Assembly (NCBI RefSeq): GCF_044647545.1
Contig: NZ_CP172818.1
From: Escherichia coli
GTDB lineage: Bacteria; Pseudomonadota; Gammaproteobacteria; Enterobacterales; Enterobacteriaceae
Reading direction: 5' to 3' (one strand)
DNA: 64,000 nt
Below the pieces are notes generated by a model. The model had not been told where the DNA came from and did no database searches. It saw nothing but the letters and a program-made list of their open reading frames with translations. Below, in pieces: positions 8,453-42,718 of this stretch. The position numbers were made by a program, and so were the translations under genes. The stretch's first letter is position 1. The number at the start of each line of letters is the position of its first letter.

Positions 8453-9376
8453 GTGCGTAGCCGTTTTTCGGCATTTTATCCAAAAGCAAACTATGGCTTA
8501 CAAGGAAGCCAACCCTCTGATGTTCGTGCGCATAATCGCGCTGCCAACGGCGCGTGTGATGAATACAAACAACTCAAGGTGCTCTCCATGGGAAGACAAA
8601 AAGCAGTGATCAAAGCTCGTCGCGAGGCAAAACGTGTGCTGAGACGGGATTCGCGCAGCCATAAGCAGCGTGAAGAAGAATCGGTCACCTCGCTTGTGCA
8701 GATGAGCGGCGTAGAAGCCATTGGTATGGCCCGCGACAGTCGCGATACTTCGCCCATCCTCGCGCGAAATGAAGCGCAATTGCACTATCTGAAGGCTATT
8801 GAGAGTAAGCAGCTGATATTCGCCACGGGCGAAGCTGGGTGCGGAAAAACCTGGATCAGCGCAGCAAAAGCGGCAGAGGCCCTGATACATAAGGATGTCG
8901 ACAGGATTATCGTCACCCGTCCAGTTCTGCAAGCCGATGAAGATCTTGGCTTCTTACCTGGTGATATCGCAGAAAAGTTTGCTCCCTATTTTCGCCCGGT
9001 CTACGATGTGCTGGTCCGGCGCTTAGGGGCTTCCTTTATGCAGTACTGCCTGCGACCAGAAATAGGGAAGGTGGAAATTGCGCCGTTCGCCTATATGCGT
9101 GGACGTACCTTTGAAAATGCAGTCGTCATTCTTGACGAGGCGCAGAATGTGACTGCCGCGCAAATGAAAATGTTTTTAACCCGCCTCGGGGAGAACGTGA
9201 CGGTTATCGTCAACGGTGATATCACGCAATGCGATTTGCCTCGCGGCGTGTGCTCCGGATTAAGTGACGCGCTGGAACGTTTCGAAGAGGATGAAATGGT
9301 CGGGATCGTCCGATTCGGTAAAGAGGATTGCGTACGTTCGGCACTTTGCCAACGTACGCTACATGCATACAGTTAA
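8453..9376 (+). CDS. phoH: PhoH, phosphate-starvation-inducible ATP-binding protein (start uncertain; ATG at 8588 would give 262 aa)
   Basis: ORF track 307 aa; Walker A motif GEAGCGKT; C-terminal ...CQRTLHAYS; recognised as E. coli PhoH. Confidence 0.88.
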   Translation: MRSRFSAFYPKANYGLQGSQPSDVRAHNRAANGACDEYKQLKVLSMGRQKAVIKARREAKRVLRRDSRSHKQREEESVTSLVQMSGVEAIGMARDSRDTSPILARNEAQLHYLKAIESKQLIFATGEAGCGKTWISAAKAAEALIHKDVDRIIVTRPVLQADEDLGFLPGDIAEKFAPYFRPVYDVLVRRLGASFMQYCLRPEIGKVEIAPFAYMRGRTFENAVVILDEAQNVTAAQMKMFLTRLGENVTVIVNGDITQCDLPRGVCSGLSDALERFEEDEMVGIVRFGKEDCVRSALCQRTLHAYS

Positions 9377-17620: not shown

Positions 17621-17708
17621 TGGCGGTGAGGGGGGGATTCGAACCCCCGATACGTTGCCGTATACACACTTTCCAGGCGTGCTCCTTCAGCCACTCGGAC
17701 ACCTCACC
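17621..17708 (-). tRNA. serX: tRNA-Ser (anticodon GGA)
   Basis: Reverse complement reads GGTGAGGTGTCCGAGTGGCTGAAGGAGCACGCCTGGAAAGTGTGTATACGGCAACGTATCGGGGGTTCGAATCCCCCCCTCACCGCCA: long variable arm, CCA end, anticodon loop cuGGAaa. Confidence 0.93.
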
Positions 17709-22601: not shown

Positions 22602-23252
<651 letters not shown>

Positions 23253-24007
23253 GATGAAACCCCGCTTTTTTTTATTGATCGCACACCTGACAGCTGCCTC
23301 TAAAATAGAAGCACCAGAAGTACTGACAGATGTTGCACTGCTGTGTGTAGTAATAAATCAGCCCTAAATGGGTAAAATATAAAACTAATGGATTACATCT
23401 GATTTCAATCTAGCCATTACAAATCTTAAATCAAGTGTTAAACATGTAACTAAATGTAACTCGTTATATTGAAATGTTAATCTTAAGGTTTTATTAAGTT
23501 TAGAAATGATAGAAAAGTTGTACATTTGGTTTTTATTGCACAATTTTAAAAAATCATACAAATGGTGCTAACTTGCTAATAATGCATATAAAAAATATTT
23601 CGGTGTAGTCCTTTCGTCATGTAAAACGTTCTTGTTTTTTCTCTACACCTCCTTGGACAATTTTTTACTGCAAAAAGACGAGGTTTGTCACGGCTTGTGC
23701 GCAAGACATATCGCAGCAATCAGCGACGTGCAAGAAGAATGGCTGTCTGGTGATTTTTGATTGCGGAAAACGGAGATTTAAAAGAAAACAAAATATTTTT
23801 TTGCGTAGATAACAGCGTATTTACGTGGGTTTTAATACTTTGGTATGAACAAAAAAAGAAAAATACAACGCGCGGGTGAGTTATTAAAAATATTTCCGCA
23901 GACATACTTTCCATCGTAACGCAGCGTTAACAAAATACAGGTTGCGTTAACAACCAAGTTGAAATGATTTAATTTCTTAAATGTACGACCAGGTCCAGGG
24001 TGACAAC
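23253..24007. promoter_or_regulatory. csgD-csgB divergent intergenic regulatory region (csgDEFG and csgBAC promoters)
   Basis: ~750 bp AT-rich non-coding region between divergent curli operons; the only ORF in it (23720..23914) is low-complexity and judged spurious. Confidence 0.8.
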
Positions 24008-24463
24008 ATGAAAAACAAATTGTTATTTATGATGTTAACAATACTGGGTGCGCCTGGGATTGCAGCCGCAGCAGGTTATGATTTAGCTAATTCAGAATAT
24101 AACTTCGCGGTAAATGAATTGAGTAAGTCTTCATTTAATCAGGCAGCCATAATTGGTCAAGCTGGGACTAATAATAGTGCTCAGTTACGGCAGGGAGGCT
24201 CAAAACTTTTGGCGGTTGTTGCGCAAGAAGGTAGTAGCAACCGGGCAAAGATTGACCAGACAGGAGATTATAACCTTGCATATATTGATCAGGCGGGCAA
24301 TGCCAACGATGCCAGTATTTCGCAAGGTGCTTATGGTAATACTGCGATGATTATCCAGAAAGGTTCTGGTAATAAAGCAAATATTACACAGTATGGTACT
24401 CAAAAAACGGCAATTGTAGTGCAGAGACAGTCGCAAATGGCTATTCGCGTGACACAACGTTAA
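24008..24463 (+). CDS. csgB: Curli minor subunit/nucleator CsgB
   Basis: ORF track 23981..24463; the MKNKLLFMMLTILGAPGIAAA start gives 151 aa; imperfect Q/N-rich repeats. Confidence 0.94.
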   Translation: MKNKLLFMMLTILGAPGIAAAAGYDLANSEYNFAVNELSKSSFNQAAIIGQAGTNNSAQLRQGGSKLLAVVAQEGSSNRAKIDQTGDYNLAYIDQAGNANDASISQGAYGNTAMIIQKGSGNKANITQYGTQKTAIVVQRQSQMAIRVTQR

Positions 24464-24503: not shown

Positions 24504-24959
24504 ATGAAACTTTTAAAAGTAGCAGCAATTGCAGCAATCGTATTCTCTGGTAGCGCTCTGGCAGGTGTTGTTCCTCAGTACGGCGGCGGCGGTAACCACG
24601 GTGGTGGCGGTAATAATAGCGGCCCAAATTCAGAGCTGAACATTTACCAGTACGGTGGCGGTAACTCTGCTCTTGCTCTGCAAGCTGACACCCGTAACTC
24701 TGATCTGACCATTACCCAGCACGGCGGCGGTAACGGCGCAGATGTTGGCCAAGGTTCTGATGACAGCTCAATCGATCTGACTCAGCGTGGTTTCGGCAAC
24801 AGCGCTACTCTTGATCAGTGGAATGGTAAAGATTCTACTATGACTGTTAAACAGTTCGGTGGCGGTAACGGTGCTGCTGTTGACCAGACTGCATCTAACT
24901 CCAGCGTTAACGTCACTCAGGTTGGCTTTGGTAACAACGCGACCGCTCATCAGTACTAA
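24504..24959 (+). CDS. csgA: Curli major subunit CsgA
   Basis: ORF 151 aa; signal peptide plus five imperfect repeats (SELNIYQYGGGNSAL..., TQHGGGNGADVGQ..., etc.). Confidence 0.95.
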   Translation: MKLLKVAAIAAIVFSGSALAGVVPQYGGGGNHGGGGNNSGPNSELNIYQYGGGNSALALQADTRNSDLTITQHGGGNGADVGQGSDDSSIDLTQRGFGNSATLDQWNGKDSTMTVKQFGGGNGAAVDQTASNSSVNVTQVGFGNNATAHQY

Positions 24960-33473: not shown

Positions 33474-33575
33474 GCCTGATGCGCTACGCTTATCAGGCCT
33501 ACATCGCTCCTGCAATGTATTGATTTTGCAAGATTTTGTGGGTCGGATAAGGCGTTCACGCCACATCTGGCAAAA
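33474..33575. repeat. REP/BIME extragenic palindromic repeats
   Basis: gcctgatgcgctacgcttatcaggcctac and gtgggtcggataaggcgttcacgccacatctggca are classic REP units. Confidence 0.75.
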
Positions 33576-42667: not shown

Positions 42668-42718
42668 TAATCTCTATGCTCCGGCTGAAGGGATGTTTTT
42701 GCCGGACACAAAGGATAA

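Follow-up and report, generated by a model that had tools for sequence, protein, structure and literature searches.

The csgD–csgB intergenic region of an Escherichia coli genome: promoter modules, a structured csgD leader and a central spacer of conserved length

The window analysed here (the whole 64,000-nucleotide stretch of Escherichia coli DNA, from contig NZ_CP172818.1) carries two curli genes that point away from each other. On the left is csgD (22602..23252, minus strand), a gene for a LuxR/GerE-type regulator, whose 216-aa ORF has Pfam matches to GerE and to a VpsT-like receiver domain. On the right is csgB (24008..24463, plus strand), a gene for a curlin repeat protein, which begins with an ATG at 24008 and matches Pfam Curlin_rpt. 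CsgD has 2 amino-acid differences from its K-12 counterpart and CsgB has 1. Between the two genes, by the ORF list and the sequence, lie positions 23253–24007, 755 bp. A reading made earlier from the sequence alone (the sequence-only reading) had placed the gap at exactly these positions, and counting from the end of csgD to the csgB ATG bears this out. It had also taken the flanking genes for divergent curli operons, as ORF orientation, Pfam domains and the K-12 annotation of the aligned locus confirm, and the internal repeats that it noticed in CsgA and CsgB correspond to Curlin_rpt matches in 5 and 3 stretches respectively.

In length (about 750 bp expected) and in its AT-richness the region fits the curli control region. 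Its GC content, 34.3% where the whole window has 49.8%, drops to 23% at its lowest, at 23400–23599, around the csgD promoter. The K-12 version (754 bp) is the fifth largest divergent intergenic region of the K-12 genome and is 65.5% AT (PMC5745457). If genes are called crudely, as any ORF of 100 aa or more, it is the third largest ORF-free gap of the window and the largest AT-rich one; the sequence-only reading had called it AT-rich and one of the longest intergenic regions in the window, and on that gene call both descriptions hold. The region is, with a probability of roughly 0.9, the control region that the divergent curli operons csgDEFG and csgBAC share, modular in build and encoding no protein. 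Its anatomy, its conservation, the covariation within the csgD leader, the lack of a coding signal and the spacing statistics were computed here. Few stretches of the E. coli chromosome are regulated as heavily, and it governs commitment to the biofilm matrix. The initial observation is confirmed and its interpretation essentially right, and the biology is already known.

General scans of the region yielded little. No tandem repeats were found in it, and its short direct and inverted repeats are mostly at the level expected by chance for AT-rich DNA, the exceptions being the MlrA palindrome and a GCGTTAACAA pair in the csgB leader, both considered below. A scan for sigma-70 promoters returned 2 sites, fewer than the 4.1 that chance would give, and no known csg promoter was among them. 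Weak Rfam matches to SMAD5-AS1 and mir-338 (E about 7–8) were dismissed as chance.

For comparison between genera, 80 csgD loci from other Enterobacteriaceae species were collected, and 41 of their intergenic regions were aligned with that of the window, giving 42 sequences. Of the 76 other loci measured, 73 have a region of 742–802 bp; the outliers are two Kosakonia species (586–589 bp) and one Escherichia sp. (733 bp). Across the 41 other taxa, discrete modules stand out while 23566–23832 is unconserved. On the csgD side, judged by identity outside Escherichia, the modules are the Shine-Dalgarno (SD) sequence, leader positions +50..+89 and the core promoter with OmpR site D1 (+2..−60), followed further out by the ATATTAAAATGTTAA element (−66..−82), both MlrA half-sites and the block at −148..−165. 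A small island at 23673–23692 stands between the two sides. On the csgB side, the SD and the start of the leader are conserved, as are, further out, the −10, the CsgD box and an upstream element. The Salmonella csgD–csgB (agfD–agfB) region, 760 bp in S. enterica subsp. diarizonae, has the same architecture, sharing with the window OmpR D1/D2, the MlrA box, the CsgD box and, with compensatory changes, the leader hairpin SL1. Overall identity to the window is nonetheless only about 63%, and over the central spacer and the first ~50 nt of the leader the two can hardly be aligned at all.

The csgD core promoter and OmpR activating site D1 occupy 23402..23462 (minus strand), a stretch identical to K-12 and part of a conserved block that covers 23398–23450 and onward. 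With the csgD start at 23400 ± 1, a −10 can be read as TAGATT (23407–23412), and a tandem GTTACA at 23445–23450 and 23455–23460, centred at about −51, is our own reading of the hexamers of D1. OmpR has been placed at −51 (D1) and, as an inhibitory site D2 in Salmonella, at −71 (PMC13304067). The conserved ATATTAAAATGTTAA element (23466..23482, minus strand; about −66..−82) would correspond to D2 by its position, and it carries two departures from K-12, a lineage-specific A-to-G at 23471 (−71) and a C-to-T at 23481 (−81). According to the literature RstA shares the OmpR motif. Further upstream, at 23513..23547 (−113..−147), the palindrome AAAAGTTGTACA-N12-TGCACAATTTT reads as the MlrA box and is conserved across genera. 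The published MlrA site is a 33-bp palindrome at −113..−146, between the IHF and OmpR sites, and with the csgD start at 23400 the one in the window falls at that published distance. By sequence and distance both the OmpR D1 pair and the MlrA palindrome are thus where they are expected, as putative sites. Next to the MlrA box on its IHF side is a conserved block, AAAAATCATACAAATGG (23548..23565; −148..−165), whose tentative assignment to IHF comes from its position in the literature; the two K-12 differences nearest to it, at −168 and −175, lie just outside.

Which proteins and sRNAs bind where is taken from the literature throughout, so that the assignments made here carry positions over from papers on K-12 and Salmonella. 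In the literature the footprint of H-NS extends over −201..+28 and that of RcsB over −31..+54, and the initial footprint of RcdA is −308..−192; the net effects of H-NS and of RcsB are opposite in Escherichia and in Salmonella. Most mapped protein sites, 26 of 32, fall within 200 bp of the csgD transcription start (PMC5745457), and the footprint of conserved modules found here fits that clustering. The csgD promoter would accordingly be read, by analogy with those studies, as activator-dependent, with OmpR at D1 (~−51), a D2-like site at ~−71, MlrA at −113..−147 and then the IHF-side block, the whole csgD side presumably being covered by the H-NS footprint.

Transcription from this promoter would yield a csgD mRNA with a 5′ leader of 148 nt (23253..23400, minus strand), its start at 23400 ± 1 being taken from the 5′ end of the RNA known as ES056 and from the mapped start site. 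In the literature the csgD UTR is likewise 148 nt, with two hairpins, SL1 (−83..−28 from the AUG) and SL2 (−10..+16), and is bound by OmrA/B, McaS, RprA, GcvB and RydC (PMC4152358); the RprA sites are at −119..−84 and −14..+7 (PMC3465796). In the window SL1 is at 23280..23335 (minus strand; mRNA +66..+121), as seen both in the minimum free energy (MFE) fold and by covariation, and according to the literature OmrA/B dock on its 5′ half. SL2 is at 23237..23262 (minus strand) and covers the SD, GCGGGG (23260–23265), and the AUG. An RNAalifold consensus also recovers the hairpins, and the sRNA target sites that flank them are identical to those of K-12.

Folding energies are weakly informative: the whole leader has a z-score of −1.7, ES056 by itself −1.9, and the 5′ variable part, over 18 taxa, −1.1 on average. 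The structural case was therefore built on covariation, for which the stretch −100..+20 was aligned in 33 taxa. Over these taxa 92.5% of the cells of the SL1/SL2 structure are paired, and 12 pairs of the RNAalifold consensus show compensatory changes. Cells in which both sides have changed number 99, against 28.6 ± 6.7 after shuffling (0 of 500 shuffles reach the observed count), and the covariation score is 0.364, as compared with 0.182 for shuffled alignments and 0.08–0.13 when the pairing partners are slid. The apical stem of SL1 is wholly different in sequence between genera and keeps its complementarity. Helices 4 and 5, those of SL2, are 99% paired and nearly invariant. As a regulatory RNA the csgD leader is both structured and conserved. 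By analogy with K-12, SL1, SL2 and the single strands near them would serve as a docking platform, on which Hfq-dependent OmrA/B, McaS, RprA, GcvB and RydC may block translation or lower the amount of mRNA. The rpoS and flhDC leaders are comparable, being long structured 5′ UTRs that integrate stress signals through several Hfq-dependent sRNAs. However, all sRNAs known to act on csgD repress it, several of them from far upstream of the SD, whereas the sRNAs of rpoS act mainly by anti-antisense activation (PMC4152358 for both comparisons).

The first 92 nt of this leader (23309..23400, minus strand) are also a full-length match (model positions 1–92) to an Rfam sRNA family, RF02752 or ES056, with 119.7 bits (E 4e-23; the gathering cut-off is 43 bits), and 11 of 20 other taxa tested have it too, equally far upstream of csgD. 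ES056 was described as a 92-nt RNA-seq transcript whose 5′ end is within 1 nt of the mapped start site; it is conserved in Escherichia, Shigella and Citrobacter, and no Rho-independent terminator was predicted for it (Rau et al. 2015, BMC Genomics 16:1051). By its K-12 coordinates it spans nt 1–92 of the csgD 5′ UTR. The sequence in the window agrees with that of Rau et al. in its full length and its 5′ end; the status of an independent gene is not accepted here. ES056 is most likely a 5′ fragment of the csgD leader, a product of decay or of premature termination, and not a gene. This is suggested by its start, which is that of csgD, by the absence of a terminator on its strand in a scan of the region, and by its 3′ end, which at +92 falls, in the fold of the whole leader, inside the covariation-supported SL1. 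Neither a promoter of its own nor a defined 3′ end, as an independent gene would have, is thus to be seen. Northern blots in the literature revealed a ladder of csgD 5′-end fragments, for which decay or premature termination was suggested (Mika et al., PMC3465796).

It has to be weighed against this that ES056 may be a genuine small RNA, free-standing or derived from the 5′ UTR, that acts in trans, for instance as a sponge for RprA, OmrA/B, McaS and GcvB. It does carry the upstream target sites, RprA site I (+30..+65) and, within the 5′ arm of SL1, that of OmrA/B, and it belongs to a curated family with a strong match, syntenic in the 11 of 20 taxa mentioned. Rau et al. found it differentially expressed, and after manual removal of UTRs they retained it as an sRNA, on the ground that RNA-seq coverage fell before csgD. 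The 5′ fragments of Mika et al. (PMC3465796) were abundant and included one specific small fragment, and it was in that work that a possible trapping of RprA by such fragments was proposed, so that the sponge idea is not new. Yet a start shared with csgD and an end without a terminator do not suit a gene, and an RNA ending at +92 cuts through a hairpin that evolution preserves. The second hairpin of the Rfam structure shares bases with the 5′ arm of SL1, the two being mutually exclusive, and its covariation score, 0.075, compares with 0.094 after shuffling (489 of 500 shuffles are as high), though this is weak evidence, the stretch being nearly invariant. The region of its first hairpin aligns poorly between genera, and what recurs there is a smaller GC hairpin at about +29..+39. 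Its role in cis as a target of sRNAs accounts in full for the conservation of the sequence, and a discrete species rests solely on a threshold in RNA-seq coverage. A trans-acting sRNA is therefore rather unlikely, though a discrete, stable ES056 species may exist. Annotation pipelines based on Rfam label this part of the csgD leader an sRNA gene; it is better treated as a fragment of the leader.

At the other end of the region, the csgB promoter block (23833..23908, plus strand) consists of conserved blocks: an upstream element, TAATACTTTGGTATGAAC, a putative CsgD box, CGGGTGAGTTA (23873–23883), and a −10, CATACT (23903–23908). CGGGTGAGTTA is assigned by its agreement with the CsgD-box consensus, and CATACT we take to be the probable sigma-S-type −10 of csgB. 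The CsgD box lies upstream of this −10, and the distance from its first G to the −10, 29 bp, is invariant in 41 taxa. CsgD protein would bind at the box and so turn on csgBAC. Transcription probably begins near 23915, as judged from the conserved −10, which gives a csgB leader of about 93 nt (23915..24007, plus strand) with the GCGTTAACAA direct repeat in it and a conserved block for translation initiation at 23988–24007. Among taxa the csgB leader varies from 73 to 113 nt. The sole terminator-like site in the scan of the region (23955–23940, minus strand) is within the csgB leader and on the wrong strand for it.

The csgB promoter block is also the site of the best candidate for a hidden protein gene. 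Eleven ORFs of at least 20 aa lie inside the gap, 10 of them intact in at most 7 of the 42 sequences, and a Pfam search with seven ORFs of the gap gave no match. The remaining one, of 24 codons (23845..23919, plus strand), is intact in 27 of the 42 sequences, from many genera, and is always 75 nt long, as a conserved small protein gene might be. However, it sits exactly on the CsgD box and the −10, and its constant length follows from the invariant spacing of the csgB promoter, which explains its conservation too. In 15 taxa it has internal stops or frameshifts, its start codon is ATG, GTG, TTG, ATC or CTT, and its amino-acid changes are radical. Nor is there an excess of variation at third codon positions: the entropies at the three positions are 0.48, 0.64 and 0.67, the second being as variable as the third (permutation p = 0.23). 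It lies upstream of the likely csgB start, no known transcript spans it, and it has no obvious SD, no Pfam match and no K-12 annotation. A search of the literature for a small protein in the region gave only SamT, which is encoded elsewhere, downstream of asr. This ORF was rejected as a gene, and a small protein gene anywhere in the region is extremely improbable.

On the evidence of these alignments the region is without a protein gene, and the claim of the sequence-only reading that there is no credible ORF stands. Its wording that the region is fully non-coding needs to be narrowed to not protein-coding, since two leaders, of 148 nt (csgD) and probably ~93 nt (csgB), are transcribed from about 240 of the 755 bp, about a third. 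It had also named a conserved small ORF or sRNA as the find that would speak against it. There is no such ORF, and the RF02752 match is an sRNA in name, which is read here as a leader fragment.

Between the promoter modules lies a central AT-rich spacer of 267 bp (23566..23832), poorly conserved in sequence and conserved in length, with its A-tracts in helical phase and a small conserved island inside it at 23673–23692. Against E. albertii it aligns free of gaps at 66% identity, so that 34% of its positions differ; against Citrobacter and Salmonella the alignment is weak (z = 3–8), and against more distant genera scores are no better than for shuffled sequence. The distance from MlrA box to CsgD box, on the other hand, is 364.7 ± 3.4 bp (range 356–370, CV 1.0%) over 74 loci from Escherichia to Buttiauxella. 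The internal control for this comparison is the two leaders of the same loci, whose unconserved parts vary more, 96 ± 7.2 nt and 91 ± 8.0 nt (CV 7.5% and 8.8%). Were length variance proportional to the count of unconstrained bases, an SD of about 16 bp would be expected of the spacer. Its GC content is 31–43% in every genus sampled. In the window AA/TT dinucleotides recur in it with a period of 10.4 bp (z = 7.8 against dinucleotide-preserving shuffles), consistent with the intrinsic curvature reported for the region (PMC5745457 among sources). By mononucleotide shuffles, the phasing of A-tracts is clear in Escherichia, some Citrobacter and Pseudescherichia and is absent in most other genera. 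By literature coordinates the initial footprint of RcdA (−308..−192) and the outer edge of that of H-NS overlap the spacer.

The simplest reading is that the role of the spacer is architectural, with selection acting on its length and not on its sequence, and it is most likely a scaffold for complexes of H-NS, IHF and RcdA. The stricter proposition, that 23566–23832 is a molecular ruler whose length is under selection while its sequence is randomised between genera, is advanced tentatively, at slightly less than even odds. If it is true, the ruler would set the distance between the two promoters within one loop or bridge formed by H-NS, IHF or RcdA, so that firing of csgD and csgB, and bimodality, would be coupled. 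In the literature examined on the region, the size, curvature and AT content are mentioned and a constraint on length was not found stated.

It is also possible, if distinctly less than an even bet, that the spacer is neutral filler, its constant length reflecting a low rate of insertion and deletion and the phasing of A-tracts in Escherichia being incidental. Such filler would lose its identity to distant genera, as it has, down to the level of shuffled sequence; few binding sites have been mapped within it, its A-tract periodicity is not significant in most taxa outside Escherichia, and the range of 356–370 bp exceeds one helical turn, so that strict phasing is not kept. Against this, the unconserved leader parts in the same loci, about 50–60 bp each, have an SD of 7–8 bp as against 3.5 bp for the 267-bp spacer. 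E. coli and E. albertii have come to differ at 34% of spacer positions without a single gap, AT-richness has been kept in all genera sampled, and the RcdA and H-NS footprints do reach into the spacer. A spacer that is conserved in length and free in sequence, as the ruler reading has it, would be a simple, testable hint at physical coupling of the two promoters. This constraint on length and the allele at −71 considered below are modest leads, both open to test.

The K-12 csgD–csgB region (NC_000913.3, 1103197–1103950, 754 bp), in whose RefSeq record no feature is annotated between the two genes, has the same flanking genes in the same orientation. It differs from that of the window by 11 substitutions and one 1-bp insertion (98.4% identity), and the region was detected in 5371 of 5426 complete E. 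coli genomes, in keeping with the description of the locus in the sequence-only reading as conserved, known biology. Counted from the csgD start at 23400 ± 1, the substitutions are at −71, −81, −168, −175, −244, −253, −329, −342, −353, −362 and −451; 7 of the 11 are inside the central spacer, and 2 more (−168 and −175) are at its csgD-side edge. The extra base makes an A8 tract (23266..23273, minus strand) of what is A7 in K-12. It is the only difference in the csgD leader, directly 5′ of the SD and bordering the 5′ edge of RprA site II (−14..+7), and the length of the tract differs among taxa. Unchanged are, on the csgD side, the −10/−35 region, the tandem GTTACA of OmpR D1 and the MlrA palindrome; in the leader, everything from +1 to the A-tract, with all the published sRNA target sequences, and SL1 and SL2; and on the csgB side, the last 156 bp (23852 to the csgB ATG), with the CsgD box, the −10 and the csgB leader. 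The locus is thus intact with every core regulatory element as in K-12, and regulation of curli should be conventional.

The sequence-only reading had proposed that known regulator sites be scored against K-12. Scored in this way the core elements, OmpR D1 and the csgB −10 included, are identical, with one conserved position altered, −71 in the OmpR D2-like element, the only one of the 12 differences to strike a deeply conserved position. At 23471 the window has G, where 36 of the 41 other taxa have A. Curli expression is known to shift with single-base changes at the csgD promoter (PMC13304067 among sources), and the A-to-G change at −71 might be conjectured, from its place in the element, to be a candidate for differences between strains in the osmotic or temperature control of curli. 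The allele of the whole region is a minority one, with 227 records at least 99% identical, about 4–5% of complete genomes. Its perfect matches include strains named ST648, MS6198, ECONIH1 and IMT16316, which we take to be of phylogroup F/ST648. A 71-bp allele with the G at −71 occurs in 271 of 5145 E. coli genomes, and in strain 64.1 the T at −81 is present without the G at −71.

The csgD leader is interrupted by an IS1A element of 768 bp in two E. coli strains, 142 (NZ_CP048337.1, locus L084) and CUVET20-416 (genome match H27), in both of which the allele is, apart from the IS1A, 100% identical to that of the window. The 9 bp target duplication, CACCAGAAG, corresponds to window positions 23312-23320 (mRNA +81 to +89). 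This target is within the 5′ arm of the leader hairpin SL1, the arm that is the binding site for OmrA/B. In both strains the element splits the csgD promoter from the csgD gene, and the insertion is likely a natural knockout or rewiring of curli regulation.

No match to the csgD-csgB region was present in 55 of 5426 complete E. coli genomes, and some genomes (e.g. match H25) retain only its final ~60 bp. The missing and residual matches indicate deletions of the curli control region in some E. coli. Matches at just 80-90% identity come from 17 E. coli records, and six matches among the complete genomes are plasmid-borne. A natural exception to conservation of intergenic length is in Kosakonia: in K. 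pseudosacchari and K. quasisacchari (L080 and L081), the only loci that are much shorter, the region is 586-589 bp vs ~760 bp, and a search of these two loci for MlrA half-sites gave no match.

A short GC hairpin is located at 23362-23372 (mRNA +29 to +39), near the start of the csgD leader, whose first 50 nt are elsewhere AU-rich and little conserved, and it overlaps RprA site Ia. Most of the 18 taxa whose early leader was folded (L007-L078) have it at the equivalent position, with stem sequences that vary: E. coli, for example, has CCC/GGG, Enterobacter and Lelliottia share CCUCC/GGAGG, and Yokenella has GCCUC/GAGGC. As its thermodynamic z-scores are weak (mean −1.1 for the 18 taxa), recurrence at the same position is the sole basis for it. 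In the Enterobacter clade a U-run comes after the hairpin, which then resembles an intrinsic terminator (e.g. CCGCCUCCUCUGGAGGGGGUUUUUAAC); Enterobacter hormaechei (L036), Enterobacter cloacae (L056), Enterobacter wuhouensis (L023) and Lelliottia (L026) have this form ~95-125 nt 5′ of the csgD ATG. In several taxa the 3′ arm, GGAGG, is followed by an AUG and 2-codon mini-ORF (AUG GUC UGA). Neither the terminator-like nor the mini-ORF arrangement is present in the E. coli early leader.

A G-to-T change at 23653, specific to the window, creates TTGGACAATTTT (23653-23664), which matches the MlrA right half-site TTGCACAATTTT (23536-23547) at 11 of 12 positions and is 117 bp farther upstream. The resemblance is probably due to chance. 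The curli proteins themselves differ from their K-12 counterparts by T61A, A63T, N110D and E112T in CsgA (csgA, 24504-24959), S98N in CsgB (csgB, 24008-24463), and S19P and S110A in CsgD (csgD, 22602-23252).

Further matches above threshold in an Rfam scan of the window, all on the minus strand, were to Ysr251 antisense RNA (9178-9371; 186.9 bits), a tRNA (17624-17708), the ES036/CssrF sRNA (33495-33537; 49.9 bits) and the PyrC leader (42668-42717; 68.7 bits).
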